This document shows, piece after piece, positions 8,258 through 22,302 of a stretch of 64,000 nt of DNA. Below the pieces are notes generated by a model. That model worked only from the letters and a program-made list of their open reading frames with translations. It did not search any database and was not told where the DNA came from. Origin of the DNA: a virus; the IMG/VR virus record IMGVR_UViG_3300028584_000098, positions 1-64,000 of that record; one strand, written 5' to 3'. The first letter of the stretch is position 1. Each line of letters opens with the position of its first letter. The translations under genes and the position numbers were made by a program.

Positions 8258-8378
8258 ATATTTCTTAGCTAGGTCTCAGTTGAAGGCTAGGAATATTTAG
8301 AACTGAGCGTGGTCCCGTTTGTTGCATGGCGGGGCGATAACCATAGGGCGCTTTAGCTTTACATGCTTCCCAAATTAC

Positions 8379-8462: not shown

Positions 8463-8465
8463 ATT

Positions 8466-8540
8466 GCTTCCATGGTGTAGTTGTAAACATGGATCGTTGC
8501 CAACGATTTGTCGAGAGTTAGAACCTCTCTGGAAGCTCCA
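8466..8540 (+). tRNA. tRNA-Gly (GCC)
   Basis: Acceptor GCTTCCA/TGGAAGC, anticodon arm GATCG-TTGCCAA-CGATT, T arm GAGAG-TTAGAAC-CTCTC, CCA encoded. Confidence 0.85.
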
Positions 8541-8855
8541 ATTCCCGAACGTGCCGGTAAGCGAACCGGAGGCCCTAATAGTTGCGACCCTTGTGGACAA
8601 AAACTAATGGACAAACAAAAGCTGGACTATCCTAGTAATAGGCGATGAATGCAATAAATCCAGTCTGACGCAAGTCTACGCAAAACACCTTCGGGTGCTG
8701 GTCGCAGCGAGGAAGTAGTCTATAGCGAGACAACCTGAGCTATAAAAATATGAATGGTCCGTGCATACGCCTTTGTTGAGGCTTCCTCCTAAGAAGGGAA
8801 TATCAACTGGCTCGGAAGCGGCGAGCCACCGAATTTTTAGCAGAGAGAAAAGAAA

Positions 8856-9227
8856 ATGAAAACGGTAACAGTAGTATTCGGCGACGGTAACTCTAGTAAG
8901 TACGACTATCTAGTAGGTGATGCCACACAGGTAGCTAAGGGCGACGTTGCCGTAGTGCACACGGGTGCTCGTAATGGCTTCAAGTTTGTAGTAGTAACTA
9001 ATGTTCGCGCAGGTGTTTCAAAGAATGCAACTAAGACCCTAGTTACTGTTCTTAATGATTATGTACTTGATGCGTACCAGAAGCGCAATGCTGAAGTAAC
9101 TAAGAAGCGCGAACTATTCGAGCGTCTAGATCAACTTGTTGAACTAGAGTACGAAAACAACAAGTACCGAGTTCTTGCTGCTATCAATCCTGAAGCAGCT
9201 AAGCTAATTGCTGAACTTGGTATGTAA
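8856..9227 (+). CDS. hypothetical protein
   Basis: Track ORF with a purine-rich leader. Its stop abuts tRNA-Leu. Confidence 0.65.
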   Translation: MKTVTVVFGDGNSSKYDYLVGDATQVAKGDVAVVHTGARNGFKFVVVTNVRAGVSKNATKTLVTVLNDYVLDAYQKRNAEVTKKRELFERLDQLVELEYENNKYRVLAAINPEAAKLIAELGM

Positions 9228-9309
9228 GCCCCGTTGGCGGAACGGCAGACGCGCTAGTCTTAGGAACTAGTTCTTCGGAGTGAGGGTTCAAATCCCTTGC
9301 GGGGTACCA
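9228..9309 (+). tRNA. tRNA-Leu (TAG), class II
   Basis: Acceptor GCCCCGT/GCGGGGT, 3-bp D stem, anticodon arm CTAGT-CTTAGGA-ACTAG, long variable arm, T loop TTCAAAT, CCA encoded. Confidence 0.8.
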
Positions 9310-9321
9310 TTTAAGGAACCA

Positions 9322-9696
9322 ATGTTAAATACTGTAAATCAAGGTAGTATAGGATTATCTGCCGCAATATATAAACTAACTAGTTTAGGTTATACTGTTT
9401 CAGTGCCTCTTATTGATAATCAATGCTATGATTTAGTAGTTGATATTGCTGGTACGCTAAATAAAGTTGAAGTAAAATCTACGTCTGTAAACTCCAATAA
9501 CGACAATTGGATAGTACAGATAAAAAGAGTTAGGTCCAATAAAACTGTTAATACCATATATAAATTTGATAATTTATCTGTAGATTATCTATTTATTTAT
9601 ACTATGGCTGGAGACTGTTACTTTATACCTGCTAGGGACGTAGATACTAAAAATCAGCTTACTGTTCCAGGTAAGTTTTTAAAGTATAAACTATAA
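9322..9696 (+). CDS. PD-(D/E)XK-type free-standing homing endonuclease (I-Ssp6803I-like pattern)
   Basis: ATG 9322 is in frame with track ORF 9280-9696, whose first 14 codons are tRNA sequence. It carries the catalytic-like D (YDLVVD) and E-x-K (VEVKS). The gene is AT-rich and sits between two tRNAs. Confidence 0.55.
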   Translation: MLNTVNQGSIGLSAAIYKLTSLGYTVSVPLIDNQCYDLVVDIAGTLNKVEVKSTSVNSNNDNWIVQIKRVRSNKTVNTIYKFDNLSVDYLFIYTMAGDCYFIPARDVDTKNQLTVPGKFLKYKL

Positions 9697-9697
9697 A

Positions 9698-9781
9698 GGC
9701 AGGTGCCGGCAAGGTGTCAAAGCGGATTTGAAATCCGTGGTCAGCGAAAGGTGAGGGTTTCGATTACTCCACCTGCCTCCA
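9698..9781 (+). tRNA. tRNA-Ser (TGA), class II
   Basis: Acceptor GGCAGGT/ACCTGCC, anticodon arm GCGGA-TTTGAAA-TCCGT, long variable arm, T loop TTCGATT, CCA encoded. Confidence 0.75.
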
Positions 9782-10072
9782 CTATCCCGGTGCTTAGATA
9801 CGGCCGGAGGTACTATAGACAGCAACTTAGAGATAGCTTTTAGAGTAAGGCTAGGCCAAGTGTTTATGGGAAAGAAATCTAAGGTGTGTTTGCGGCACGC
9901 ACGACTCGTGACTGAGTAACGCTCCAGTTTAAGGGTATATTAGAACCCTGGGTGATGGTTGTTTCATCCAATGTCCGAGATAGGGCAAAACAACCACTTT
10001 CCGAGCGTGGAGGCGTGGGTATGGAAAGTAAGAGCGCTAGGAAGCAAGATCCTAGAACTGACGCCACAATAA

Positions 10073-10149
10073 GGGGGATTCGTCTAATTGGCCCAGGATA
10101 CCGGATTTTCGCTCCGGTGATGCGAGTTCGAGTCTCGTATCCCCTTCCA
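10073..10149 (+). tRNA. tRNA-Glu (TTC)
   Basis: Glu-type architecture: GGGGGAT-TC-GTC-TAATTGGCCCAGGAT-A-CCGGA-TTTTCGC-TCCGG, T arm GCGAG-TTCGAGT-CTCGT, CCA encoded. Confidence 0.85.
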
Positions 10150-10263
10150 TTGATAAACATGTAGTAGGTTACAGGGCTGATTACCTGTAGATTAATACCA
10201 TTAGTAGCTCGCTAAGAGACGCGGCTTAGCCACCTAGGGTCTACATGTTTTTCAATGGAATAC

Positions 10264-10339
10264 GTTGGTCTAGCTCATGGGGTAGAGCGGCAGGTTCCAA
10301 CCCTGCGCGAGGTGGGTTCGAGTCCTACGACCTTCGCCA
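10264..10339 (+). tRNA. tRNA-Trp (CCA) with two U:U mismatches in the acceptor stem
   Basis: D arm GCTC-ATGGGGTA-GAGC, anticodon arm GCAGG-TTCCAAC-CCTGC, T arm GTGGG-TTCGAGT-CCTAC. Acceptor GTTGGTC/GACCTTC. Confidence 0.6.
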
Positions 10340-10344
10340 ACAAT

Positions 10345-10420
10345 GTCACAGTGGCTCGAAAGATTAGGCTGGGGATTGCAACTCCCTATAATGTTGGTTT
10401 GAATCCAATCTGTGACTCCA
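10345..10420 (+). tRNA. tRNA-Cys (GCA)
   Basis: 76 nt with canonical numbering. Acceptor GTCACAG/CTGTGAC, anticodon arm GGGGA-TTGCAAC-TCCCT, T arm GTTGG-TTTGAAT-CCAAT, CCA encoded. Confidence 0.85.
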
Positions 10421-10648
10421 AGCCCCTACTAACCTTACTAGGGTTAGTACACATGCCTCGCTGTATAGTGCTAGGACCAGGATATAGGTCACGTCTACCT
10501 GATAGTACGCTCTACTATACTGCCAATCTAGTTTCTGTGCCAGCATAGTGGGCACGCCGGATGATAGTAACCGGCATTTTGATAAACGTATATTAGTGTG
10601 GACCTACGGGAGAAGCGCGACGCAAAAAACCTATACGTTTTTCAAAAG

Positions 10649-10736
10649 GGAGAGTTAACCGGCTGGGTGCTGGGACCGCTTGCTAAGCGAATCGAACCTT
10701 AACGGGTTTAGAGATCGAGACTCTAGCTCTCCTCCA
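10649..10736 (+). tRNA. tRNA-Ser (GCT), class II
   Basis: Acceptor GGAGAGT/GCTCTCC, loop TTGCTAA on a short stem, long variable arm, T arm TAGAG-ATCGAGA-CTCTA, CCA encoded. Confidence 0.65.
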
Positions 10737-10744
10737 TTTAGTTC

Positions 10745-10773
10745 TTGACTTTTGTTCCCTATTTTGTTATTAT
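10745..10773 (+). promoter_or_regulatory. sigma70-type promoter (family copy)
   Basis: TTGACT 10745-10750, 17 bp, TATTAT 10768-10773. Confidence 0.75.
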
Positions 10774-10792
10774 AAAGACTAAGGAGAACGGA

Positions 10793-10990
10793 ATGCTCAA
10801 AGTTTATATAGCAGCTACAGATGCTGGTTACGGTTATTTTGATAATGTTCTGTGGCTAGAGAATGGATCAGATAAGTTTCTTATTGAGTTCACGGAGTCT
10901 ACTGTTGCAAGATTTGAGACCTTGATGAGTGACGGTACCAAATTAGCTAAAATGCTTGGAATTGAATTGGAGCTTATCTATGTCAGCTGA
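10793..10990 (+). CDS. hypothetical protein (65 aa)
   Basis: ATG 10793 follows an AAGGAGA RBS and is in frame with track ORF 10745-10990, whose listed start lies inside the promoter. Confidence 0.6.
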   Translation: MLKVYIAATDAGYGYFDNVLWLENGSDKFLIEFTESTVARFETLMSDGTKLAKMLGIELELIYVS

Positions 10991-11144
10991 AATTATTGAC
11001 TTTGATCTAGCATATCAGCGTATTAAGGGTCCGATTGCCGCAATGGCATTTCGTAACCATCGTAATCTTCGTATGACACATCTTATTGTGAACGGAGTTT
11101 ACGTAGCAAAAGCAGATAAAGGTGGGCCTATGAAGGCGGCCTAA
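10980..11144 (+). CDS. hypothetical protein (54 aa)
   Basis: ATG 10980 overlaps the previous gene's end and is in frame with track ORF 10956-11144. Confidence 0.5.
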   Translation: MSAEIIDFDLAYQRIKGPIAAMAFRNHRNLRMTHLIVNGVYVAKADKGGPMKAA

Positions 11145-11223
11145 AGTTTAATCCGTCGTCTAAAGCTAGAAGACGCCTTTTAGGGTTGGATGTGAGAAGT
11201 CGATGCTCACCGGATTAACGAGA

Positions 11224-11296
11224 CGCGGGGTAGTGTAGGTGGATTTTGCACGACGGCCTCATAAGCCGTAGGAGGGGTTCGACTCCCCCGATCGCA
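11224..11296 (+). pseudogene. initiator-like tRNA-Met (CAT) with a broken 3' acceptor strand
   Basis: The 5' two-thirds are well formed: CGCGGGG-TA-GTGT...GCAC-G-ACGGC-CTCATAA-GCCGT, T loop TTCGACT. The 3' end CCCCCGATCGCA cannot pair with CGCGGGG. A homing-endonuclease cassette starts 16 nt downstream. Confidence 0.4.
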
Positions 11297-11311
11297 TCTC
11301 GAAAATATTTC

Positions 11312-11340
11312 TTGACATTTTAGCTGTACAGTGTTAAACT
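11312..11340 (+). promoter_or_regulatory. sigma70-type promoter, probably giving a leaderless mRNA
   Basis: TTGACA 11312-11317, 17 bp, TAAACT 11335-11340. The ATG at 11346 sits at the expected transcription start and has no SD. Confidence 0.55.
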
Positions 11341-11345
11341 TGTTT

Positions 11346-12065
11346 ATGTTTAAATGTCCATATTGTTCTAAACCTTTTAAGTTCTGGATTTCTGTTAGAG
11401 GGCACACAAGTAGCTGCGCTACAAATACTAAAGAATATTATATAGATAAACTATACGGTCCGTTACACTACACTATTTTTGATAGTAAGACAGATAGAGA
11501 AATTAGATCAGTTTATCCTAAGCTAAATTCTTTATCTGATATTAGACGTACTTTTAGAAATAAAAATATAGTAGTAAATATACTGGAGGGAGCTATAATT
11601 TCTAAGCAAGATATTATAGTGGCCATACAAGATTATTACTTTATACATGGTAGGATACCTCAAATACGAGATTTTTATCACTCTAAGTATCCTGGAATTA
11701 CAACTATAAGAGATAGATTTGGTTCCTGGAACGAAGCTATTAAAGCTGCGGGTTTTGAGCCTAATGAAAATGATGGGTTTGGTACAAGAACTATAGCAGA
11801 TGATGGTGTTCTATATAGAAGCCATTATGAAACTATGTTTGTAAATAGATTTCTTTTTAATAAAGAGATTTATGAGTACGAAGTAAAGTACCCAAATCAT
11901 AATAAATACTATGATTTTTATCTTCCAGAACGTGATATCTATATAGAAATAGATGGTGGTTGTAGGCCTGTTGTAATGGAAGAAAAGCTAAAAATCAATA
12001 AAGAATTAGGTAGAAATTTACTTGTCATTAAAGGTAATGAAATTGCTACTTTTAGTGGGTTCTAA
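11346..12065 (+). CDS. free-standing homing endonuclease, paralog 1 (N-terminal C2HC/C2H2-like finger, Vsr/DUF559-like PD-(D/E)XK C-terminus)
   Basis: MFKCPYCSKPF...HTSSC finger. FGSWNEAIKAAGF repeat typical of homing-endonuclease accessory domains. YDFYLPERDIYIEIDG nuclease-like block. In frame with track ORF 11331-12065. Confidence 0.6.
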   Translation: MFKCPYCSKPFKFWISVRGHTSSCATNTKEYYIDKLYGPLHYTIFDSKTDREIRSVYPKLNSLSDIRRTFRNKNIVVNILEGAIISKQDIIVAIQDYYFIHGRIPQIRDFYHSKYPGITTIRDRFGSWNEAIKAAGFEPNENDGFGTRTIADDGVLYRSHYETMFVNRFLFNKEIYEYEVKYPNHNKYYDFYLPERDIYIEIDGGCRPVVMEEKLKINKELGRNLLVIKGNEIATFSGF

Positions 12066-12187
12066 GGTTAGCCTCTAAATCGGCTCGCGTGGTCCTATGG
12101 TTAGGCCGCACCCGAGGGCGGAAGTAAAACACTTCGTTAAAAACGGGTTAGAGGCTTTCCGGTGAGCCTATCACCGGCCGGATTTAT

Positions 12188-12262
12188 TCTCATTAATGCA
12201 CAAGGTGTGCAGCCGAGCTGTTAACTCGTGTGAGCTAGGTTCGATCCCTAGAATGAGAGCCA
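12188..12262 (+). tRNA. tRNA-Asn (GTT)
   Basis: Acceptor TCTCATT/AATGAGA, D arm TGCA-CAAGGTG-TGCA, loop CTGTTAA, T arm CTAGG-TTCGATC-CCTAG, CCA encoded. Confidence 0.85.
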
Positions 12263-12273
12263 AAATTTAGTTC

Positions 12274-12302
12274 TTGACTTCAACCGCCCAATCGGGTATT
12301 AT
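12274..12302 (+). promoter_or_regulatory. sigma70-type promoter (family copy)
   Basis: TTGACT 12274-12279, 17 bp, TATTAT 12297-12302. Confidence 0.75.
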
Positions 12303-12315
12303 TAGAGGGTAGACA

Positions 12316-12516
12316 TTGAGCAGCACGGCAATCAACGCGAAGCTAATCTTCGAAAAAGAAGTATTCTTTCTAGAAGCACTGAAGCGGAAGCTAGACTCAA
12401 CTGAGTCTGACGATCCTACGGAAGTTCGTCTTGCGGAAGAAGCCTCATGGGACTATGATCTAATTATTGCCTATTTTAAAGGTCGAATTAAAGAATTTGA
12501 AAAGTTGATTTGCTGA
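12316..12516 (+). CDS. hypothetical protein (66 aa, TTG start)
   Basis: Track ORF. Its stop codon TGA 12514-12516 lies inside the first 5 nt of tRNA-His. Confidence 0.4.
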   Translation: MSSTAINAKLIFEKEVFFLEALKRKLDSTESDDPTEVRLAEEASWDYDLIIAYFKGRIKEFEKLIC

Positions 12517-12587
12517 CTTAGCTCACCCGGTTAGAGCGCTGGTTTGTGGAGCCAGAGAATAGGGTTCGAGTCCCTAAGTCAGTGCCA
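12512..12587 (+). tRNA. tRNA-His (GTG)
   Basis: Acceptor GCTGACT/AGTCAGT, D arm GCTC-ACCCGGTTA-GAGC, anticodon arm CTGGT-TTGTGGA-GCCAG, T arm TAGGG-TTCGAGT-CCCTA, CCA encoded. Confidence 0.8.
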
Positions 12588-12661
12588 AAATATTCAGGCT
12601 CTGTTTGAGAAGCTAGACAATCAGACTGTGACATTTTGTGGAAACACAGAAATCTGAATTA

Positions 12662-12908
12662 GGTATCCGGGTGGCGGATTTAATGATGCGAAACTTGGCA
12701 TCGCCAAAAACTAGGTGGCTCAGTCGTGGAGCCTTAATGATATTACGATCTGATATCGCCTGAAATATAGATACGCTGTATATGGATGCCGTAAGGTCAC
12801 AGTGCGAGGTTCGAATCCTCGGCAGCAGCAGGAGACGTTCTGCAAGTATCAAAATACGTTAGTATTTCAAGGATTGGTGGCCGTATGGCCTTAATGATGT
12901 GCATCGCC
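12662..12908 (+). repeat. three paralogous ~35-47-nt structured RNA modules (hairpin-UUAAUGAU-hairpin-CGCC)
   Basis: Copies lie at 12662-12705, 12714-12760 and 12876-12908. Each is GGT-[hairpin 1]-TTAATGAT-[GATxx...xxATC hairpin]-GCC. A T-loop-like hairpin CGAGG-TTCGAAT-CCTCG (12804-12820) lies between copies 2 and 3. Confidence 0.55.
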
Positions 12909-13097
12909 AACCATATTTCGCAAACAGCTAGGGCACACTTTAGTAGCTGTTTTCGTAATATGGTGGGAATAGGTCGAACAAAGAATAGAGCAATAGCCAT
13001 TGGATAAATAGACCTTAACAGGTTTACCAGTGTCGCCGGGTACCCAACCGGACCGAAAGGATAAACTTTATCTCCTGATAAATCATATTTTCAATAT

Positions 13098-13172
13098 CGG
13101 GCTGAACTCCTACGGTTGGAGAACTGATTGTCTATCAGTTAGCAGCGAGTTCGACTCTCGTCAGCCTGACCA
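13098..13172 (+). tRNA. tRNA-Asp (GTC)
   Basis: Acceptor CGGGCTG/CAGCCTG, D arm CTCC-TACGGTT-GGAG, anticodon arm ACTGA-TTGTCTA-TCAGT, T arm GCGAG-TTCGACT-CTCGT, CCA encoded. Confidence 0.8.
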
Positions 13173-13179
13173 CTCTTAT

Positions 13180-13252
13180 GGCCCCGCCGAGGTATTGCGG
13201 ACATGTCCCTACGAAGGACGTTGGTTGGGTTAGACTCCTAACGGGGCTTCCA
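13180..13252 (+). tRNA. tRNA-Arg (ACG)
   Basis: Acceptor GGCCCCG/CGGGGCT, anticodon arm TGTCC-CTACGAA-GGACG, T arm TTGGG-TTAGACT-CCTAA, CCA encoded. The D arm is short. Confidence 0.65.
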
Positions 13253-13364
13253 TATTTGCTACGGAATGGTACGGCCATTTTCTCCTGAGGAGGTGATTAA
13301 TCATTTGCCTCATTCTGTAGTTTCGGTGTCCGGTCGCCTACATTGGTGGGCTCCCCGGCTCCGC

Positions 13365-13404
13365 GCCCGCTCGGGCGATGCTGACGACCCGAGCGGGCTT
13401 TATT
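13365..13404 (+). terminator. intrinsic terminator-like GC hairpin
   Basis: GCCCGCTCGGG (13365-13375) pairs with CCCGAGCGGGC (13388-13398) and is followed by TTTATT. Confidence 0.6.
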
Positions 13405-13406
13405 AT

Positions 13407-13481
13407 GCACGTTAGTCCGAGTGGTGAGGGCCTGTCCTGATAAGACAGTGGTGCTGGGATCGAAACCCAGAGCGTGTACCA
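13407..13481 (+). tRNA. tRNA-Ile (GAT)
   Basis: Acceptor GCACGTT/AGCGTGT, anticodon arm CTGTC-CTGATAA-GACAG, T arm CTGGG-ATCGAAA-CCCAG, CCA encoded. Confidence 0.8.
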
Positions 13482-13488
13482 ATATTAT

Positions 13489-13564
13489 AGGCCTAGGCCC
13501 ATCTGAGAATGGGGAGCGACTCTTAATCGCTATGTTTAGGGTTTGAATCCCTTTAGGCCTACCA
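13489..13564 (+). tRNA. tRNA-Lys (CTT)
   Basis: 76 nt with canonical numbering. Acceptor AGGCCTA/TAGGCCT, D stem CCCA/TGGG, anticodon arm AGCGA-CTCTTAA-TCGCT, A73, CCA encoded. Confidence 0.85.
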
Positions 13565-13572
13565 AAAATTCT

Positions 13573-13661
13573 GGGTGAGTACCAAAGCGGCCGAATGGGG
13601 TAGACTTTTAATCTGCTTGTAGAAATACACATCATGGGTTCGAATCCCCTCTCACCCTCCA
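13573..13661 (+). tRNA. class II (long variable arm, Leu-like body) tRNA carrying anticodon UUU
   Basis: Acceptor GGGTGAG/CTCACCC, 3-bp D stem CCA/TGG, anticodon arm GTAGA-CTTTTAA-TCTGC, variable arm TGTA-GAAA-TACA, T loop TTCGAAT, U73, CCA encoded. Confidence 0.65.
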
Positions 13662-13673
13662 TAAGGAGAATTA

Positions 13674-13844
13674 ATGACATACAATATTAGATACAGCCCA
13701 GCAGGACGAGCACGAAATTCCCTGCTTACGGGTGGGGGGGCTCCTGCTGGCTTCTCGCGCACGACCTACAACGGCGTCGCGGTCACATACAACGGTCGGC
13801 CGGTCTTCGATGACGGCGCAAACTTTCTAGTGAGGGCCGCATGA
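13674..13844 (+). CDS. junction-spanning small protein (56 aa)
   Basis: AAGGAG 13663-13668, ATG 13674. The first ~9 codons are AT-rich backbone and the rest is high-GC (…TTYNGVAVTYNGRPVFDDG…). The stop overlaps the next start (ATGA at 13841). Confidence 0.5.
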   Translation: MTYNIRYSPAGRARNSLLTGGGAPAGFSRTTYNGVAVTYNGRPVFDDGANFLVRAA

Positions 13845-15421
13845 CCGAGTTCGTAAACGTCCTCTATGAGGTGGGCGTTCCGCGTGGCCTCCAAGGCTCA
13901 AACGCCTTCAATCTGGCTGACGCCGGGGCGGAGCTCAACTACTACATCGACGCCTCTACGGGTGTTGTCTCGCTGTCGCTGGCTGGTGGGACCAAGTACC
14001 ATCTGACCGGCTACATTGCCGTCAAACCGGGCGTCACCTATCGGCGTTTCAATGCTTCAGGCCCCATCGGATACTTCGACAGGAACCTGACTTGGATCTC
14101 CGGCGCGAGCCCCGGCACGACATTCACGCCGCCTGCTGACGCTGCATACGTGCGGATATCCATCGTTCGCAGCGCTTGGCGCAATTCCTGGCTGATCGTT
14201 AACGGCGGCGCGACCGTTTGGACCCCCTACGGAAACCGCATCGTCAATCAGGCGGTAAACCCGCTCCAGGTCGGCTATCTCCGCAACTCAAAATATCGGC
14301 TCGCAAAGCGACTGTTGCCGACGCCAGAGGCTGAGCGGATCATCATCAATGCAGCCGGAGACAGCTACACGCAGGCGCCAACCCGATGGACCGGCCCCTT
14401 CATGGATTACATGGCCGCGAAGTACGGCGATGGCGGCGGCGGCTGGTGCGGCTTCAGCTTCGCCTCAGCTGGAACGCCGCCCTACACCCTGGGTAACCAG
14501 CCCTCACTACTGAACGGCAATGTTCGACCCGCGACCTACCCGACCAAGGTGTACGGCTCGCCCACCGCCTCTTACGGCTCCAAGAACATGCCTGATATCA
14601 GCGCGATCACGCTGGCAGCGTCTGGCGACTACGTCTTTCAAGCCTTCCCCGCTACGCCGGTCCATAACGGTTGCGACCTGTTCTTTGAGGGCACATCCAA
14701 CGGCGTGGTCAAATACCGTTGGGGAACCTATGTGTCGGGCTCCGTCAGCGACCCGGCCAGCTATAGCTTTGGGTCTGATACGAATATCAACCTGCAAGGA
14801 GCGCTGGCTGCGACCCAAGTGGCGGACATCAAGACCGGCATGCCTAGCGGCGCGGGGGCGGTCATCGTTGAATGGGTCTCTGGCAGCTCCATCGTAAGCG
14901 GCGTCAACCTCAAGTCGGCGGCCAGCGGCGTAGTGGTCAACAAGCTGGCATGCAGCGGCTCTCAGGTCGCTAGTTGGACGAGCAAGACAGCCGCTCAATG
15001 GCAGGCGGGCATGACTGCCTTGGGCGGCGAACTCTTCGTCTTCATGGATGGTCCAAACAGCCAAGCCTCAACCATATTGCCCGCTGTCTGGCGTTCGTCG
15101 GTCGGGACGCTGATGACGCGCCTACGCACCGCGCTTCCCGCCTCAGACATCTTGCTGGCCACCCCGCCGGAGAACCAGCGCACCTACAACCGCATCAGCA
15201 TCCTGAGTTATCAGGTCGAGGCTGCGGCAGCGTCCATCGAGAACGCCTACACCCACTTGGACCTTCAAACGGCCTTCGGTGACGGCGGCAACGCTACCGA
15301 GTATGGCAGCGCCGGGATCGTCCCCTTGTTCAACGCCGACCTGCTGCATCCTGAACCCCTTACCGGCGGCAGGTTGCTCATGAAGGAGTTTGCGCGGGCC
15401 ATTGAGCCGATGGCCGCTTAG
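13841..15421 (+). CDS. SGNH/GDSL-family esterase with N-terminal lectin-like domain (tail-fibre/tailspike-type glycan esterase candidate)
   Basis: SGNH blocks appear in order: IINAAGDSYTQ (block I), GGGGWCGF (II), FMDGPNSQ (III), NADLLHPEP (V). The gene is high-GC and is the only long ORF with sensible composition in this island. Confidence 0.65.
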   Translation: MTEFVNVLYEVGVPRGLQGSNAFNLADAGAELNYYIDASTGVVSLSLAGGTKYHLTGYIAVKPGVTYRRFNASGPIGYFDRNLTWISGASPGTTFTPPADAAYVRISIVRSAWRNSWLIVNGGATVWTPYGNRIVNQAVNPLQVGYLRNSKYRLAKRLLPTPEAERIIINAAGDSYTQAPTRWTGPFMDYMAAKYGDGGGGWCGFSFASAGTPPYTLGNQPSLLNGNVRPATYPTKVYGSPTASYGSKNMPDISAITLAASGDYVFQAFPATPVHNGCDLFFEGTSNGVVKYRWGTYVSGSVSDPASYSFGSDTNINLQGALAATQVADIKTGMPSGAGAVIVEWVSGSSIVSGVNLKSAASGVVVNKLACSGSQVASWTSKTAAQWQAGMTALGGELFVFMDGPNSQASTILPAVWRSSVGTLMTRLRTALPASDILLATPPENQRTYNRISILSYQVEAAAASIENAYTHLDLQTAFGDGGNATEYGSAGIVPLFNADLLHPEPLTGGRLLMKEFARAIEPMAA

Positions 15422-15422
15422 A

Positions 15423-15451
15423 CCCCCACACCCCTACTCAGTTTGTGGGGG
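15423..15451 (+). terminator. hairpin immediately after the esterase stop (no U-tract)
   Basis: CCCCCACA (15423-15430) pairs with TGTGGGGG (15444-15451). Confidence 0.35.
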
Positions 15452-15529
15452 TGCTGGTCTCCCATCTGGCCCGATATTTGAGTCCAAGAGTTGCAGGCGG
15501 GACTTCGTTCATAGAGCGGAGTCCCGAAA

Positions 15530-15820
15530 ATGCACACCTTCTCACAAGCCGCCGCCAGCTACCTCGAACACGGCGGCGAGGCTCGATATCTCGCCCGCCT
15601 GGTCGAGCGCTTCGGCGCCGACGATGTGACCACGATCACGCCGATGGCGGTTCGAACCGCCGCGGTCGATCTCTATCCCGACGCCTCGCCTGCGACCCGC
15701 AACCGGCAGGGCATCACCCCGGCCCGCTGCGTCCTCTATCACGCCCATGAACTGGGCTGGCGCATGCCTGCGCCTGGCCAATTTCTTAAACTTATGAAAG
15801 TCAAGGATTATATAAAATAA
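15530..15820 (+). pseudogene. 5' stub of a tyrosine integrase gene (N-terminal SAM-like domain only)
   Basis: MHTFSQAAASYLEHGGEARYL...ITPMAVRTAAVDLYPDASPATRNRQGITPARCVLYHAHELGW resembles integrase N-termini. The reading frame leaves high-GC DNA at ~15,780 and ends 13 codons later in backbone sequence. No catalytic domain is present. Confidence 0.5.
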
Positions 15821-15823
15821 TTC

Positions 15824-15852
15824 TTGACTTTCACTGCCTAACATACTATACT
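15824..15852 (+). promoter_or_regulatory. sigma70-type promoter (family copy)
   Basis: TTGACT 15824-15829, 17 bp, TATACT 15847-15852. Confidence 0.8.
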
Positions 15853-15858
15853 ATTTAA

Positions 15859-16054
15859 ATCGAATATGAAATACTGATTGAAAAAACAGCGTAAGGGGTA
15901 ACGCCCTTCTGTTAGACTGCACAAAGTAAGGAGTCCTGCCCTGAAAATAAGCGCTAAGGGAATAAATAAGTGGCTTAGCGGCTGCAGATATAAGACCCAT
16001 GCATAGAATATCTGGCTTAGCGGCCTAATTTAATCAGTATCTCATATTTGATTC
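15859..16054 (+). ncRNA. ~195-nt structured leader RNA closed by a long-range helix; abuts tRNA-Gly
   Basis: ATATGAAATACTGATT (15864-15879) pairs with AATCAGTATCTCATAT (16032-16047). TGGCTTAGCGGC is duplicated (15971-15982, 16013-16024) around a CAGATAT/ATATCTG hairpin. No ORF. Confidence 0.5.
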
Positions 16055-16128
16055 GCGTCTTTCGTATAATGGTATTATCACAGCCTTCCAAGCTGAGGAC
16101 ACGGGTTCGATTCCCGTAGGACGCTCCA
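16055..16128 (+). tRNA. tRNA-Gly (TCC)
   Basis: TCGTATAATGGTATTATCACAGCCTTCCAAGCTGAGGA is close to my recollection of enterobacterial Gly(UCC). Acceptor GCGTCTT/AGGACGC, T arm ACGGG-TTCGATT-CCCGT, CCA encoded. Confidence 0.85.
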
Positions 16129-16136
16129 ATTTCTAC

Positions 16137-16213
16137 GCACCCGTCGTCAAGTGGTCCAAGACCGTGAGCTCATAACTCATTTATCACTGGTTCGAATCCA
16201 GTCGGGTGTACCA
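16137..16213 (+). tRNA. tRNA-Met or Ile2 (CAT)
   Basis: Acceptor GCACCCG/CGGGTGT, anticodon arm GTGAG-CTCATAA-CTCAT, T arm ACTGG-TTCGAAT-CCAGT, CCA encoded. Confidence 0.8.
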
Positions 16214-16238
16214 TATTTTCTTAACAAGGATACTGAAT

Positions 16239-16394
16239 ATGCGAACTGCTGTATATGATGAAGATGCTGTAGAGTTGTACGAAGATGGTACTCTTATTGA
16301 CACCCGGTACGTTGGTGATAAGAGTATTTACTGGATCGAAGATATGATCGAGAATTGGGAGTTAGGGTTAATTAATGCTGCGTTAGCTCAGTAG
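16239..16394 (+). CDS. small hypothetical protein (51 aa)
   Basis: ATG 16239 follows an AAGGA RBS and is in frame with track ORF 16206-16394. The last 6 codons and the stop (TAG 16392-16394) are encoded by the 5' end of tRNA-Thr. Confidence 0.45.
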   Translation: MRTAVYDEDAVELYEDGTLIDTRYVGDKSIYWIEDMIENWELGLINAALAQ

Positions 16395-16452
16395 GTAGAG
16401 CAACTCCTTTGTAACGAGAAGGTCGCCAGTTCGATTCTGGCACGCAGCCCCA
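16377..16452 (+). tRNA. tRNA-Thr (TGT)
   Basis: 76 nt with canonical numbering. Acceptor GCTGCGT/ACGCAGC, D arm GCTC-AGTAGGTA-GAGC, positions 34-36 TGT (weak anticodon stem), T arm GCCAG-TTCGATT-CTGGC, CCA encoded. Confidence 0.75.
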
Positions 16453-16460
16453 CTTTTTGA

Positions 16461-16532
16461 TGTTCTGGATATGGTTATCTCCCGCGGTCTCATAAGCTGC
16501 AGGATCGGGATCGAAACCCGATGGAACTCCCA
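16461..16532 (+). tRNA. atypical tRNA-like gene with CAT anticodon loop
   Basis: T arm TCGGG-ATCGAAA-CCCGA and CCA are good. Acceptor TGTTCTG/TGGAACT has a U1:U72 mismatch. The D hairpin GATA-TGGT-TATC is tiny. The anticodon stem extends to 9 bp (TCCCGCGGT/GCTGCAGGA). Confidence 0.4.
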
Positions 16533-16662
16533 AAAGTCTTTTGCCTTATAAAGTACGAGCCTGTTAGTGTCCATTGGAAGTGGGCTAATAGTGTCTTTCT
16601 AAGGGCCACACTAGCCCTGGATGATTCTGGTAGTGCGGGAGATAGTCACTTTATACCGCTAA

Positions 16663-16737
16663 GGACTTTTAGCTCAGTAGGTAGAGCGTCTGGTTGAAGC
16701 CCAGAAGGCCTCAGTTCAATTCTGAGAGGGTCCACCA
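16663..16737 (+). tRNA. tRNA-Phe (GAA)
   Basis: Acceptor GGACTTT/AGGGTCC, D arm GCTC-AGTAGGTA-GAGC, anticodon arm TCTGG-TTGAAGC-CCAGA, T arm CTCAG-TTCAATT-CTGAG, CCA encoded. Confidence 0.85.
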
Positions 16738-16739
16738 AA

Positions 16740-17447
16740 ATGAAATGTCCATATTGTAGTAAATTATTTAATTCCTGGAAATCAGTATCGGCTCATACAG
16801 CACACTGTTCTAGCAATTCGGGCGAGTACTATATACATAAAATTTATGGACCACTACATTATTCTACATTTAATACCTCTATAAAAGAAGTACGAGCACA
16901 ATATCCCTTAATTAACGATATATCTACAGTACTTAAAAACTTTGCTAAACGTAATATAGTAGTGGATTATACTCGTAGGCACCAGAGCCCTTCAGAACTG
17001 CTAGAAAATATTAGGATATTCTACAACAAATATAACAGAGTGCCTCAGTATAGAGACTTTTCAAATAACGTTCCACAATCTAAAGTATACGTTAGACGTT
17101 TTGGTTCCTGGAATGAAGCTATAAAAGCTGCTGGCTTTGAACCAAATGAAAACGATGGATTTGGTACTAGAACTATAGCTAATGATGGTGTGTTATATAG
17201 AAGTCACTACGAGACTATGTTTGTAAATAAGTTTCTATTTAACAAAGAGATTTATAAATACGAAGTAAAGTACTCAAGCCATAATAAATACTACGATTTT
17301 TATCTTCCTGAGCGTGACATTTATATTGAAATAGATGGAGGTTGTAGGCCTACTGTAATGGAAGAAAAGATTGAAATTAATAAAGAATTAGGTAGAAACT
17401 TATTTGTTATTAAAGGCAATGAAGTTGCTACTTTTAAAGGATTTTAA
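16740..17447 (+). CDS. free-standing homing endonuclease, paralog 2
   Basis: MKCPYCSKLF...HTAHC finger. The C-terminal ~115 aa are nearly identical to the 11346-12065 product. The ATG lies 3 nt after the CCA of tRNA-Phe, with no SD and no promoter. Confidence 0.6.
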   Translation: MKCPYCSKLFNSWKSVSAHTAHCSSNSGEYYIHKIYGPLHYSTFNTSIKEVRAQYPLINDISTVLKNFAKRNIVVDYTRRHQSPSELLENIRIFYNKYNRVPQYRDFSNNVPQSKVYVRRFGSWNEAIKAAGFEPNENDGFGTRTIANDGVLYRSHYETMFVNKFLFNKEIYKYEVKYSSHNKYYDFYLPERDIYIEIDGGCRPTVMEEKIEINKELGRNLFVIKGNEVATFKGF

Positions 17448-17537
17448 GGACGTGAACAGGTGTTCCAAGGGCCTTATACACCCTTTAGTCGGCAGATAAC
17501 CGATTTGGTCTGGTTTCGAGTACCAGTGCGTCTACCA
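17448..17537 (+). tRNA. 90-nt tRNA-like element (enlarged D arm, loop CAGATAA)
   Basis: Acceptor GGACGTG/TGCGTCT (wobble-rich), T arm CTGGT-TTCGAGT-ACCAG, A+CCA 3' end, D-like arm GGTGT-14 nt-ACACC, anticodon-like arm GTCGG-CAGATAA-CCGAT with A at position 33. Confidence 0.35.
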
Positions 17538-17559
17538 TTTTAACCAAAGGAAAAATTTA

Positions 17560-17790
17560 ATGACTGATATAACTGCATTTGTCGCTGCAATCGTAGGATT
17601 AGTGGTGCTGGTATTTTTAAGCCCTATTATTGCCGCCGGGTTTGGTGCACTAGCAGGCTGGCTAGTCGGTAGCGCGTTCGTAGGAACTGCAGCAACTGTT
17701 CTAGCTGTTACAGGACTTCAACCCTACCAGTGGGGCGCTATCCTAGCGTTTGCAGGTAGCTTCTTTAAGTCCTACTTACAACAAAAGTAA
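17560..17790 (+). CDS. small Gly/Ala-rich membrane protein
   Basis: Track ORF with two hydrophobic helices containing GxxxG-type spacing. Confidence 0.6.
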   Translation: MTDITAFVAAIVGLVVLVFLSPIIAAGFGALAGWLVGSAFVGTAATVLAVTGLQPYQWGAILAFAGSFFKSYLQQK

Positions 17791-17861
17791 GCCCCCGCCG
17801 AAGGAGCGGTACCGAGACTTCTAATCTTGGGAAACTGGTTCGATTCCAGTCGGGGGTGCCA
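17791..17861 (+). tRNA. tRNA-Arg (TCT), compact D arm
   Basis: Acceptor GCCCCCG/CGGGGGT, anticodon arm CGAGA-CTTCTAA-TCTTG, T arm ACTGG-TTCGATT-CCAGT, CCA encoded. Only 71 nt. Confidence 0.6.
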
Positions 17862-17867
17862 TTTCGT

Positions 17868-17941
17868 TCTGGATTCGTCTAATGGTAAGACGGTGGGCTT
17901 TGGTCCCGCAGATTGAGGTTCGATCCCTTGATCCAGAGCCA
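17868..17941 (+). tRNA. tRNA-Gln (TTG)
   Basis: Acceptor TCTGGAT/ATCCAGA (U1-A72 as in bacterial Gln), anticodon arm GTGGG-CTTTGGT-CCCGC, T loop TTCGATC, CCA encoded. Confidence 0.8.
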
Positions 17942-17944
17942 TCT

Positions 17945-18021
17945 CCAGGTATAGCTCAGCGTGTTAGAGTACTCCGTTTGGAGCGGAGGGGTCGTGAGTT
18001 CAAATCCCACTACCCGGACCA
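17945..18021 (+). tRNA. tRNA-Pro (TGG)
   Basis: Acceptor CCAGGTA/TACCCGG (one A:C mismatch), D arm GCTC-AGCGTGTTA-GAGT, anticodon arm CTCCG-TTTGGAG-CGGAG, T loop TTCAAAT, CCA encoded. Confidence 0.75.
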
Positions 18022-18341: not shown

Positions 18342-18467
18342 TAGGAAAGCTACTATATTCTCCGGTACTATTGATAGTACAGCTCTTCACTAAGCTACTT
18401 AGCCCCGTTACTGGGGAGCAACTAATTAGCCCTATTACTAGTGAGGATCTGGGAGTACTCGAAAACA

Positions 18468-19379
18468 ATGGCTAGTAGAATATTAAACTCCGCGGACATA
18501 GCAGCAGCCGGTGGAGTGCTTAGCGGCGACGTAGGTACAATAACCGCCGTAATTGCCGCAAGTGAAAGTCAAACTGAACTTGCAGCTATAGCAACAGATG
18601 CGGCTAATGATGCTGCACTAGCGGCTACTACAGCCGCTGGACTTGCTAATACTGCAACTACAGCGGCTAATACGGCTACTAGTAACACAAATGCTGCTAT
18701 AACTGCAGCTAACACGGCTACTACTAATACAAATGCTGCTATAGCCGCGGCTACTACAGCTACTGGACTTGCTAATACTGCGACTACAGCGGCTAATACG
18801 GCTACTAGTAACACAAATGCTGCTATAACCGCAGCTAACACGGCTACTACTAATACAAATGCTGCTATAGCCGCGGCTACTACAGCCGCTGGACTTGCTA
18901 CAACAGCTACAACGGCCGCAACTGCTGCCGCCGCAGAGGCTACAGCTTCTGCCGATGCAGCCGACCTAATTACAGCTGCTGCGGAGGCATTCCTAGACAA
19001 TGTTAGTGGGCAAGAAATTGTAACTATTACAGCCCCTAGAATTCTTAGTGCCTCAGATAACGGAAAGCTTATTGCATTTAATGGAGCATCTCCTGGCTTA
19101 CTATACGCGGATGTAGGACTTCCTAATAGCTTTCAAGTAGAGATTATGAAAGCAGGTACGGGAAGTGTATTTACTATACCTGGTCCAGGAGCTACTATCG
19201 GTGCTGTAGCCGACGCAAAAGCTATAACAACTAGGTACGTTAGTGCTTGGTTAAGACAAATTGCAGATGGTTCATTTGTACTTACAGACGGAGACAGTAG
19301 TTCTTCGGCACCTAGTATTAATCGTCCTCTATTTAATAATTCTCTAGCGTCGGGCTTGGCCCTCGCTTGGTTCGCATAA
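18468..19379 (+). CDS. fibre-like protein with Ala/Thr/Asn-rich 42-aa tandem repeats
   Basis: ATG 18468 (GTG 18441 also possible). The repeat is AAGLANTATTAANTATSNTNAAITAANTATTNTNAAIAAATT, x2.3 copies, followed by a globular C-terminus. Confidence 0.6.
   Translation: MASRILNSADIAAAGGVLSGDVGTITAVIAASESQTELAAIATDAANDAALAATTAAGLANTATTAANTATSNTNAAITAANTATTNTNAAIAAATTATGLANTATTAANTATSNTNAAITAANTATTNTNAAIAAATTAAGLATTATTAATAAAAEATASADAADLITAAAEAFLDNVSGQEIVTITAPRILSASDNGKLIAFNGASPGLLYADVGLPNSFQVEIMKAGTGSVFTIPGPGATIGAVADAKAITTRYVSAWLRQIADGSFVLTDGDSSSSAPSINRPLFNNSLASGLALAWFA
18637..18915 (+). repeat. 126-bp tandem repeat (2 full copies plus a partial one)
   Basis: CTGGACTTGCTAATACTGC... recurs at 18637, 18763 and 18889. 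The two full copies differ at only a few positions. Confidence 0.85.
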
Positions 19380-19387: not shown

Positions 19388-19966
19388 ATGGACTCAAAAA
19401 CTATTATAGATCAAGCGGGTAATCCCTTACTAATGGCAGGCCGTTTAGGCTCAGACGGTATTTTCCGTCCGGTTCACCACTCAGACGTTATCACTATTCA
19501 AACTGAAATTACCCGCCCAGCAGATACCGCTGCGTACCTTGCAGGCGATGCTATCGGAACAAGTGGTTCTGGTGTTATGAGTTTCAATATTGGTGCTCTT
19601 GGCCTAACAGCAGGGCTTATTGTTGGCGCTAGCTTAGTTCGTGACAAGGTAACAAACCCGGGAGTACGCTTTAGAGCTGCCATTCACGATGCTGCTATTG
19701 CCACAGCTCCGGCTGCTGATAATGCCCCAGCTCCTATGCTTTATGCCAATCGTGTGACTCGCCGTGGTTGGGTGGATTTCTTCACCTCAAACGCAGGCGT
19801 AGCCTCCGGGTCTAATGCACTAGAATATGCAGGTGTTCTTAGCAATCCACAAGGAATTGTTGTAGCTCCAAATGCTGGTATTCTATATTTAAGTCTACAG
19901 ACTTTAGATGCTTTCACTCCTGAAAGTGCTGGTAAGTTTATGATTGAGTTAGATATAGTAGTATGA
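19388..19966 (+). CDS. hypothetical protein (fibre cluster)
   Basis: ATG 19388 follows AAGGAA and is in frame with track ORF 19367-19966. Confidence 0.6.
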   Translation: MDSKTIIDQAGNPLLMAGRLGSDGIFRPVHHSDVITIQTEITRPADTAAYLAGDAIGTSGSGVMSFNIGALGLTAGLIVGASLVRDKVTNPGVRFRAAIHDAAIATAPAADNAPAPMLYANRVTRRGWVDFFTSNAGVASGSNALEYAGVLSNPQGIVVAPNAGILYLSLQTLDAFTPESAGKFMIELDIVV

Positions 19967-22302
19967 GTATGGCAGGAGCCGTTGCGGCGGCTATCCGCAA
20001 TACTAATTATTATAGTGATCTGTTTTCGGGAGGAGCTAGATTAGCCCTAGAGTTTGTTGGGACTAAAACAGGTAAGCCTTTTTACGGTTACGATAATAGA
20101 GTACTTAACTCCTACGCCAACATCCCCGGCTGGACCTTCACCCGCGCCTCAACGGGCTATGCGGAAGGGCTGGTTGACGACGTTGTGACCAACAAGGTTA
20201 CGGCTTGGAATGCCAACCCAACTGAAGCTGCTGGGTTTGTCGGCACTCCGTTTGGGATGCTCAAGGGCGGCGACGCGGCAGCGGTGCTGTCGGTAGTCAA
20301 CGACGTTGCTGCGTTGGCTGCTGCGGGCCTGTCGGGCGTCTGCACTTCCGGCAAGGTTTACAAGCTGGACAATACTGCGGGGAGTACGGCGGCATTCTGT
20401 AATACTGTCGGGCCATGCGGAAACACCAACAATCACTCGGTGTCTTCTTGGGCTAGGGGCGCTGCAGGTATTTTAGGGATTGGTGCGGGAGGCTCTACCG
20501 GCTTCGCGGCTTCTGGCCCGTATGTGCGGCGCACCCATGCCACGCCCGGTGTAGCCCCTAACTCCATGTTTATCGGGGCCAACGCCGGAGCCGTCGTCTA
20601 CTTCATCCTCCCCCAACTGATCGAGCGCCCCGCCGCTATCAGCCAAGACATTGTGACTGAAGGCGCTGCTGCGTCTGCTGTGGTCGGTCGGGTCAATGGA
20701 TACGTCTCGTTTGCATCGGGCGTTCCTGCAATTACCAGCAAAGGCCTGTCGGTGTGGGAAAGCCGTACTAACCTCTGCTTACAATCTAATACTCCATCTG
20801 ATGCATCATGGAACAAGAACGCTTGTTCTGTGGGTAGCGCGGTTCTCGGTCCAGATGCTGTCTTATCCGCGTATCCCATCACGGAGAGTACGGCAGGGTC
20901 TCTCCTGCGGAATATTACTGCAATCACAATTGCCTCTGGGTCAACGTACGCAATCAGCCGACTTGTTCGCCGGGGCAACTGCGACTGGATCCGTATACTG
21001 GCTGGCGACGACACCTCATTCACCAACAGTGTGCGCATCTGGTTCAATATGGCGACAGGAACAGTTGGCACTGCTGGCGTACTAGGCACTGGCTGGTCGT
21101 TCGCCAAGACTTCTGAAGTGACGGCGCTGGGCAATAGCTGGTATCGCGTCACCATGTTCGTGACGACTGGCGCAACCACCCTGTTCATCGGCAACTGCAC
21201 TGCAAACTCCGACAACACTACCAACCGCGCCGACGTCGGTGGCGGCTTTGGCGTGAATGCAGCGTACATTGTACACAACGCTGATGTTGAGCTTGGAGCA
21301 TTCCCTACTCCTCCGGTCATCACCACCACTGCCGCCGCAACCCGCGCTGCTGACAATGCCAGCATCACCGGGCTGGGCCCGCTCCTGGGGCAGTTCAGGA
21401 CGAACCTGCTGCTGCACTCAAACGATTTCGCTAATGCGGTCTGGCAAAAGGTAGCCCTCGGTAGTGGCGTAGCCCCAGTTCTGACTGCTGGTTTTGCAGA
21501 CCCGAACGGGGGTCTAGAGGCCACAAGGATCGTGTTTGATCGGGGATCTGGTACGACTGGCAACGACAGATCCAATATTAATCAGGACTATGGTGCCACC
21601 TCTGTATACACCTCTTCCATATGGCTGCGCGCAGACGCCCCAGTGCCTGTTAGTCTTCGCAGCCCCGCAAACACTGGCGGCCACACTACTATCAACGTTA
21701 CTACGGCGTGGCAGAGGTTTGAATTGTACGGAACGGCGACGCTCAGCTCAAACTTTCTGCTGGGCCTTCGCGGTGATCTAACGGCGAACAGTACCGCTAC
21801 GGTCTATGTTTACGGTGCCCAAGGTGAAACCGGCCCAGTCGCAACTCCGTACATCCCCACCACGACTGCTGCCGTCACGGTCGGCAACCCATTTACAATG
21901 GTGTCTTGGGGGGATTTGCCGGCGATTGATGGCACGGAAAGATATTTGGCAATTGCTCGGGACGCGGGCGGCGGGCTTGGCAATAATGTTTCGCTAAGGC
22001 GTTCTTCTGCAAACGCGGCGCGAATGACAGTTACAAATTCCGGTTCCGCTGTTGCTGTTAGTCCGCCGGGCGCTTTTGCGGGTGCCCTTACTATTAAGAG
22101 CGCAGGAAGGGTGCGTGTGGATGGTTTCGCGACCGCAGCTAATGGTTCGGCACTGGCTTCCGCCACACAAGCCGCCCCCGCTGTGTTGGCAACGCTATAT
22201 CTAGGCATAAACATAAATACGCAGTTCCTCAATGGCTACCTCCAGCGCGTCTTCATCTATGGCGATGTAGGCGATGCACAATTACAAAGGTTAACACAAT
22301 GA
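19963..22302 (+). CDS. mosaic tail-fibre / receptor-binding protein with two lectin-like repeats
   Basis: ATGA-coupled at both ends. About the first 50 and last 25 codons are AT-rich backbone and the ~2.1-kb core is high-GC. Two internal repeats begin NLCLQSNTPSDASWNK... and NLLLHSNDFANAVWQK... Confidence 0.65.
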   Translation: MSMAGAVAAAIRNTNYYSDLFSGGARLALEFVGTKTGKPFYGYDNRVLNSYANIPGWTFTRASTGYAEGLVDDVVTNKVTAWNANPTEAAGFVGTPFGMLKGGDAAAVLSVVNDVAALAAAGLSGVCTSGKVYKLDNTAGSTAAFCNTVGPCGNTNNHSVSSWARGAAGILGIGAGGSTGFAASGPYVRRTHATPGVAPNSMFIGANAGAVVYFILPQLIERPAAISQDIVTEGAAASAVVGRVNGYVSFASGVPAITSKGLSVWESRTNLCLQSNTPSDASWNKNACSVGSAVLGPDAVLSAYPITESTAGSLLRNITAITIASGSTYAISRLVRRGNCDWIRILAGDDTSFTNSVRIWFNMATGTVGTAGVLGTGWSFAKTSEVTALGNSWYRVTMFVTTGATTLFIGNCTANSDNTTNRADVGGGFGVNAAYIVHNADVELGAFPTPPVITTTAAATRAADNASITGLGPLLGQFRTNLLLHSNDFANAVWQKVALGSGVAPVLTAGFADPNGGLEATRIVFDRGSGTTGNDRSNINQDYGATSVYTSSIWLRADAPVPVSLRSPANTGGHTTINVTTAWQRFELYGTATLSSNFLLGLRGDLTANSTATVYVYGAQGETGPVATPYIPTTTAAVTVGNPFTMVSWGDLPAIDGTERYLAIARDAGGGLGNNVSLRRSSANAARMTVTNSGSAVAVSPPGAFAGALTIKSAGRVRVDGFATAANGSALASATQAAPAVLATLYLGININTQFLNGYLQRVFIYGDVGDAQLQRLTQ
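20112..22200. other. high-GC core (island 2) inside the fibre gene
   Basis: Line 21301 has 39/60 G+C. Long spurious ORFs run on both strands (for example 20598-21575 on the - strand). Confidence 0.75.

Follow-up and report, generated by a model that had tools for sequence, protein, structure and literature searches.

How did a block of G+C-rich DNA, carrying an intact esterase gene and the beginning of an integrase gene, come to lie in the tRNA region of an AT-rich, T5-like bacteriophage, and what might its esterase do for that phage? The block, about 2.1 kb long, lies in a 64,000-nt stretch of viral DNA (positions 1 to 64,000 of IMG/VR record IMGVR_UViG_3300028584_000098; hereafter the window, by which the whole stretch is meant). 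A prediction made from the sequence alone had described it as a recent acquisition from a temperate element. Here, we present a computational analysis of the block, its junctions, its products and its relatives in other genomes. We conclude that a virulent T5-like phage probably captured some 2.08 kb of foreign DNA recently, and that the captured esterase probably acts as a surface-glycan deacetylase. To the original prediction the analysis adds a match to the donor lineage, the exact junctions, the Ape1-like architecture of the esterase, a start codon created by fusion, the promoter context, and a second copy of the cassette in another phage.

Composition and limits of the foreign block

G+C content, G+C at third codon positions (GC3) and tetranucleotide usage agree that the block is compositionally foreign and that its edges are sharp. 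In 300-nt windows, G+C was 0.57-0.65 from approximately 13,650 to approximately 15,750 and 0.39 in 15,750-16,049, and a 40-nt scan placed the rise at about 13,697-13,700 and the drop at 15,774-15,780. The original prediction had put these changes near 13,700 and 15,780, and the hand counts on which it relied (39/60, 20/60 and 22/60) were all exact on recount. Overall, G+C was 0.616 in the block against 0.411 in the backbone, and the 2,100-nt window of highest G+C in the entire 64 kb starts at 13,701. GC3 was 0.757 in the esterase gene and 0.79 in the integrase portion, as compared with 0.25-0.38 in eight backbone genes. The tetranucleotide L1 distance between block and backbone was 0.776, against a median of 0.246 and a 95th percentile of 0.554 for backbone windows, and the block is the strongest tetranucleotide outlier within the window. 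Its distances to a locus from a Caulobacter metagenome-assembled genome (L008, 0.263) and to locus L003 (0.265) are comparable to the median for backbone windows. The right end was fixed by the loss of homology to four integrase loci (L190, L191, L200 and L003), which occurs at 15,771-15,773.

The block encodes a predicted SGNH O-acetylesterase

The principal gene of the block specifies a 526-aa protein in which an SGNH esterase had been recognized from its motifs. These motifs are present in order, and the catalytic blocks are invariant in an alignment of 19 sequences: G173-D174-S175 of block I, which includes the catalytic serine; G199-G201 of block II (GGGGW); G404 and N406 of block III, the Asn of which forms the oxyanion hole together with the block II Gly; and D500 and H503 of the block V DxxH motif, the catalytic Asp and His. 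PF13472 matches 12 of the 19 aligned homologues (best E 2.6e-9). The structure prediction that had been proposed as a check recovered the SGNH fold. The AlphaFold2 (AF2) model (pLDDT 83.4, pTM 0.83) found SGNH esterases throughout its top Foldseek matches, with the best fits to Ape1 of Neisseria (4k3u) and of Campylobacter (8gkd) at TMt 0.72-0.75 and E 1e-14 to 1e-16 over about 390 columns. A family sequence profile searched against the PDB also reached 4k3u (E 5e-7), in a region that includes GDS...GDGGxGW. In the model, residues 1-19 are disordered, a beta-sandwich occupies residues ~20-130 and the SGNH domain spans ~145-526, with a further beta-sandwich inserted between blocks II and III (~205-370, strands filling ~235-370). 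Catalytic residues and fold together predict esterase activity. The N-terminal domain had been called lectin-like, a description of which the beta-sandwich itself stood. A separate model of this domain (pLDDT 73) gave weak matches to CBM4/CBM22 (E ~7e-3) with poor template-modelling scores, and on these grounds we did not adopt a lectin assignment, although the label is a plausible one.

SGNH domains are reported to be prevalent in the receptor-binding proteins (RBPs) of temperate phages and to be active there as acetyl esterases (PMC13123978). The window esterase resembles SGNH-domain RBPs such as G7C gp63.1 and the SGNH tail fibres of Klebsiella prophages (PMC13123978) in its fold and its intact catalytic residues, and shows homology to tail fibres over their C-terminal ~500 aa. 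It matches positions 880-1270 of the 1280 positions of phrog_38670 (tail fiber protein; E 3.6e-49), and it also matches tail fibres in BFVD. By tblastn, 89-95% of its length aligned at 27-30% identity with tail fibres of Klebsiella phages and of Proteus phage Mydo. Unlike these RBPs, it is a stand-alone protein, and its gene lies among the early and tRNA genes of a phage that is virulent, outside the tail module.

Among the homologues of the esterase, the closest, P0002 (70% aa identity), is encoded beside the same small open reading frame (ORF) in phage contig L001; the gene for P0004 (53%) is flanked by those for the tape measure protein and gpM in a tail module of lambda-like type, and P0032 carries the T7 tail-fibre N-terminal domain PF03906. 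Relatives in genomes are mainly alphaproteobacterial, from Sphingobium, Sphingomonas, Caulobacter and Novosphingobium (41-51% identity), and no cultured T5-like phage was among the esterase matches. From these sequences, the esterase family is a module associated with the tails of alphaproteobacterial phages, and it has made its way into large low-G+C phages more than once.

The same comparisons bear on the substrate. The window esterase shares with Ape1 (4k3u; 8gkd and 8gld) the architecture of an SGNH domain with an inserted beta-sandwich; it differs in carrying the additional N-terminal beta-sandwich and in lacking a secretion signal. In one alternative reading, the block is real and its product would remove O-acetyl groups from the N-acetylmuramic acid (MurNAc) of peptidoglycan in the manner of Ape1, allowing lytic enzymes to cut the wall at lysis or DNA entry, as would suit the fact that the top structure and profile matches, 4k3u and 8gkd, are peptidoglycan O-acetylesterases with the same inserted domain. 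We regard such a role as unlikely. Identity to Ape1 is just 11-15%, the relatives of the window esterase are fused to tail fibres or located in tail modules, whereas Ape1 is a periplasmic enzyme of cell-wall metabolism, and the window gene specifies no signal peptide recognizable by eye and has no endolysin or holin gene as a neighbour.

A truncated integrase gene points to the donor lineage

Downstream of the esterase gene, the block contains the 5' leader and the first 81 codons of a tyrosine integrase gene (Table 1). This segment is 99.05% identical in nucleotide sequence to IMG/VR viral contig L190 (14,075 bp, 64.4% G+C), which encodes a full 271-aa integrase with the PF00589 domain at residues 104-251 (phrog_1). 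Identity is 88.9% to L200/L201, 77% to L191 and 76% to L003 and L192. The L191 integrase is WP_099538658.1 from a prophage of Caulobacter sp. X, and the window segment is 99%, 89% and 77% identical to members of the family that this protein typifies, short 271-aa integrases of Caulobacter-type prophages. In every comparison homology stops at codon 81, where the other loci continue (RIRPF...). Position 15,773 is followed by six unmatched bases and then by AT-rich backbone, which supplies the last ~13 codons of the ORF, and the stop codon lies 15 codons past the end of homology.

A profile search returned 1,094 relatives of the integrase. The 81 residues align to residues ~60-150 of integrases of 330-350 aa, in which PF00589 directly follows the matched segment, and to residues 1-81 of the 271-aa type. 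In contrast to the latter, the window copy has no PF00589: the catalytic domain, with its active-site Tyr, is wholly absent from the 96-aa ORF, and the stub is therefore incapable of working as a recombinase. A hidden Markov model (HMM) of the integrase family found nothing else in the window. An integrase stub of about 80 codons ending at the composition boundary had been anticipated, as had a high-G+C temperate source and a recent capture without amelioration. Homology extends to codon 81 and ends at 15,772/3, the segment is nearly identical to part of a viral contig that encodes the complete integrase and has a more distant counterpart in the Caulobacter sp. X prophage, and composition, GC3, tetranucleotides and the 99% nucleotide match all support a recent event.

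Two hairpins lie within this part of the block. The one just 5' of the integrase ATG is conserved over six loci (the window, L190, L191, L192, L200 and L003), with pairing preserved by double changes at 7 of its 20 pairs, and is probably a translational control element of the integrase family. The other, which follows the esterase stop codon, was located by folding, the original prediction having mentioned a hairpin in the island; it is common to the window and L191, the blastn match to which begins at 15,419.

In the donor lineage, the region within ~2.3 kb 5' of the integrase gene carries varying glycan-modifying genes. This integrase-proximal slot is occupied by genes for SGNH esterases unrelated to the 526-aa protein in L190 (3964-5133) and L003 (549-1817), and by a gene for an O-acyltransferase (Acyl_transf_3) in L200 (5703-6770); it appears to be a variable locus of glycan acetylation and deacetylation. 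When the integrase HMM was run against 23 esterase loci, matches were limited to L003 and the window. L003 was ruled out as the donor, its nucleotide identity being 76% and its GDSL gene unrelated. The simplest source would be an unsampled L190-like temperate phage with the 526-aa esterase in the integrase-proximal slot.

Table 1. Features of the foreign block and its immediate flanks (window coordinates)
Feature	Position	Strand	Basis or remark
Last backbone gene left of the block: 89-nt tRNA, UUU anticodon, long variable arm	13573..13661	+	ARAGORN; Rfam tRNA, 47 bits
AT-rich backbone giving Shine-Dalgarno AAGGAG (13,663-13,668), ATG (13,674) and first ~8 codons of small ORF	13663..13696	+	
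56-aa fusion ORF	13674..13844	+	Stop overlaps esterase start (ATGA)
Foreign high-G+C block, ~2,077 nt	13697..15773	+	Composition, GC3, tetranucleotide outlier; right end from loss of homology
Intact SGNH O-acetylesterase-like protein, 526 aa	13841..15421	+	PHROG profile, motifs, AF2 model, Foldseek
GC-rich hairpin 3' of esterase stop, without T-run	15420..15460	+	-22.4 kcal/mol, z -2.1
Integrase 5' leader and codons 1-81, 315 nt	15459..15773	+	blastn, 99.05% nt to L190
Hairpin just 5' of integrase ATG, covering its GGAG	15498..15526	+	-26.7 kcal/mol, z -5.1
96-aa ORF: integrase codons 1-81 (core-binding domain) and unrelated codons 82-96	15530..15820	+	Alignment, profile search
Right flank: 17-bp AT-rich palindrome (15,795-15,833) and next backbone promoter	15795..15852	+	Fold z -7.3; promoter scan

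The junctions

The left junction lies within the small ORF that precedes the esterase gene. Between the last tRNA gene and the block, 40-nt G+C is 0.32-0.42, as compared with 0.62-0.72 from 13,700 onward. Codons 12-56 of the small ORF are foreign, with 58% identity (tblastn) to the small ORF located 5' of the P0002 gene in L001. Differences between the two nucleotide sequences fall mostly at third codon positions, which argues that the foreign segment has been under constraint at the level of protein. Since a backbone Shine-Dalgarno sequence and ATG precede the foreign codons, the left junction falls inside the small ORF and a new start has been created for it.

This arrangement bears on whether the block is real. 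Conceivably, 2.1 kb from a co-occurring temperate phage of high G+C was misspliced into a T5-like contig during assembly. The window derives from a single 97-kb JGI contig, the esterase gene was not recovered from any other assembly, and the 99%-identical integrase segment exists on a separate viral contig, so that such DNA does occur in public metagenomes. A chimera of this kind would require two misjoins, the second leading back into the same phage at the adjacent point of a colinear tRNA array, and neither junction shows a shared repeat. Moreover, the left junction yields an in-frame ORF equipped with a backbone ribosome-binding site, and a homologous cassette is embedded in another low-G+C phage, as represented by six contigs from both JGI and Logan assemblies. 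We therefore consider misassembly very improbable.

Still less credence attaches to a history in which a temperate or satellite element integrated site-specifically into the phage tRNA gene and then lost most of its length by deletion. Although the block begins 36 nt past a tRNA gene and contains part of an integrase gene, both junctions fall within ORFs, and the integrase gene is oriented away from the tRNA gene and cut at codon 81. We found neither an att-like direct repeat of the tRNA 3' end nor microhomology at the junctions; the only resemblance was a generic T-arm similarity (76%) to the next tRNA.

A related cassette in an unrelated low-G+C phage

Contig L001 (JGI 3300046542), which carries the closest esterase homologue, represents a 165-kb phage of 42% G+C with genes for rIIB, NAMPT and ligase, and its primase-polymerase is nearest to those of phages of Erythrobacter, Sphingobium, Citromicrobium and Brevundimonas. 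The cassette of this type was seen on six contigs (JGI and Logan assemblies) and is ameliorated, with a GC3 of 0.43. Otherwise, L001 and the window have in common only NAMPT and the NadR-like gene, at ~45% identity. Because so unrelated a phage holds the same pair of genes, cassettes of small ORF and esterase evidently enter and persist in large low-G+C phages.

The comparison also raises an alternative history in which an ameliorated cassette, as in L001, was already resident in the window phage and was overwritten by homologous recombination with a prophage homologue, which brought in the start of the integrase gene. In agreement with this, homology in the small ORF has nearly the same starting point in the window as in L001, and the cassette is 70% similar between the two phages, against ~45% for their other common genes. 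However, high G+C reaches the very start of homology with no ameliorated remnant, the two phages have nothing else in common nearby, and the right junction would have to be illegitimate all the same. Overwriting is, in our estimation, improbable, and we favour direct capture into the T5-like backbone.

The T5-like backbone and the insertion site

The plus strand of the window carries, in order, NAMPT, a NadR-like gene, 19-20 tRNA genes (7,288-18,021), and genes for an NAD-dependent ligase, DnaB, primase, polymerase, SbcCD and ribonucleotide reductase; the minus strand carries tail genes, including those for a 1,652-aa tape measure protein and the major tail protein. The nearest cultured phages are of the Demerecviridae type (Vibrio VCPH, Proteus PM135 and Erwinia KEY), at 45-49% identity for the polymerase and ~32% for the major tail protein. 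From its genes, the backbone is best described as distantly T5-like; the layout and nearest relatives agree with the original prediction on this point. In a megablast search of GenBank phages the block was unmatched, and its 13.5-kb surroundings matched only tRNA fragments.

The block is situated between the last tRNA gene of a unit begun at 12,274 and a promoter, TTGACT-17-TATACT (15,824-15,852). An extended -35 motif, TTCTTGACTTTnACyG, occurs 8 times against 0.5 expected and is probably the early promoter consensus of the phage. Its sites, which include 7180, 12271, 15821, 22554, 22636 and 24189, head batches of tRNA and early genes. The near-perfect palindrome of the right flank coincides exactly with the right junction and extends into the -35 box of the promoter that follows. 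It may serve as an operator, as a terminator or as a hotspot of recombination.

In phage T5, the tRNA-containing, deletable region is populated by homing endonucleases. The tRNA region of the window likewise holds paralogous zinc-finger/HNH_repeat (PF18780) genes resembling those of homing endonucleases, at 11,331-12,065 and 16,740-17,447, one of them ~1 kb from the block, and one may speculate that breaks made by such endonucleases promoted the capture.

The tRNA that borders the block, called Lys(UUU), has a class-II-like body, with a 3-bp D stem that bears a large loop and with a long variable-arm hairpin; U73 precedes a CCA that the gene itself encodes. Long-arm tRNAs do not usually have a Lys anticodon, and the combination might point to non-cognate charging. 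An additional tRNA at 13489-13561 (Rfam, 40.5 bits) is missed by ARAGORN at default settings and is called Lys(CUU) at a relaxed threshold.

A second, weaker GC-rich block, absent from the original prediction, extends over ~20,113-22,300, within a 779-aa ORF (19963-22302) annotated as 'tail protein' (phrog_5939). GC3 in this ORF is 0.34 over the first 50 codons, as in the backbone, and 0.42-0.76 over the remainder, a shift that marks the gene as chimeric. Its best homologues are on uncultured phage contigs (34-38% identity). Just 5' of this gene and of a 199-aa ORF lies a gene (18441-19379) whose 312-aa product is rich in Ala and Thr and contains repeats of ~30 aa in tandem (NTATTAANTATSNTNAAITAA...); this looks like a fibre-like module in the early region.

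Discussion

We propose that ~2.08 kb was taken by illegitimate, rather than site-specific, recombination from a temperate phage or prophage of a high-G+C alphaproteobacterium of the Caulobacter/Sphingomonad type. The fragment would span the end of the donor's late or receptor-binding region to the start of its integrase gene, and would comprise 45 codons from the 3' end of the small ORF, the intact esterase gene, the donor hairpin, the integrase leader and 81 integrase codons. It would have landed in the dispensable tRNA region, past the last tRNA of a unit and ahead of the next phage promoter, where the backbone ribosome-binding site and ATG would start the small ORF and the ATGA overlap would couple translation of the esterase to it. 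Transcription from the early promoter at 12,274 probably reads through into the esterase gene and permits its expression, since no terminator-like site was found on the plus strand from 12,302 to the block. The integrase fragment is dead cargo.

Several observations weigh against this account. A single assembly underlies both junctions. For 13,700-15,458, the collections searched contained no near-identical source, the best match being 70% at the amino acid level; an esterase HMM had no match in L190-L199, and L190, L191, L200 and L003 contain no near-identical esterase part. Given that the esterase portion has no such source, the block may be mosaic or its donor unsampled. No close backbone relative was identified: NAMPT matches in IMG/VR and JGI metagenomes reach at most 68-73% identity, with synteny limited to NAMPT/NadR and a few tRNA genes, and the polarity and recency of the insertion are consequently not demonstrable by means of an empty site. 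With respect to function, a Pfam search of the 526-aa protein gave no match at E<=0.1, nor did the other proteins of the block match Pfam. The esterase has no virion-anchoring N-terminus, the positions of phrog_38670 before 880 being unmatched, and no signal peptide is apparent by eye in residues 1-30. Finally, its gene is in the early/tRNA region on the plus strand, whereas the minus strand carries the tail genes, at 48-64 kb.

The most likely substrate of the esterase is an O-acetylated polysaccharide of the host surface, be it lipopolysaccharide, capsule or exopolysaccharide, from which it would strip the O-acetyl groups. Such deacetylation would uncover a receptor or generate one, or would counteract masking that is based on acetylation. 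The roles named in the original prediction, in host range, receptor destruction or superinfection exclusion, are putative ones.

Neither SGNH esterases in phage RBPs nor mosaic capture is new, and the events proposed here involve no new mechanism, being ordinary exchange between phages. Like morons and other products of mosaic capture in tailed phages, the block is a compositionally foreign segment between transcription units. It differs from typical cases in that the donor lineage is identifiable to 99% nucleotide identity and in that a truncated integrase gene directly marks the transfer as one from a temperate to a virulent phage.

A broader, tentative and on balance doubtful proposal is that the small ORF and esterase form a discrete cassette, repeatedly mobilized from resident prophages into large low-G+C lytic phages of alphaproteobacteria, in which it would supply an early, soluble, non-virion glycan deacetylase. 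If so, the enzyme could undo acetylation-based masking imposed by related prophages, as the acyltransferase gene in the same slot of L200 might suggest; alternatively, it could destroy receptors and so keep progeny from being trapped. The 99% match would also make this the first T5-like phage linked to a Caulobacter-type host.

The block in the window documents with unusual clarity the passage of genes from a temperate to a virulent phage, with cargo that retains the composition of its donor and a 99%-identical, dead integrase fragment that marks the source. It furnishes a hypothesis for the host of an uncultured T5-like phage, an alphaproteobacterium of the Caulobacter/Sphingomonad type, far from the gammaproteobacterial hosts of its cultured relatives, and it suggests that glycan deacetylation is among the traits that these phages trade.

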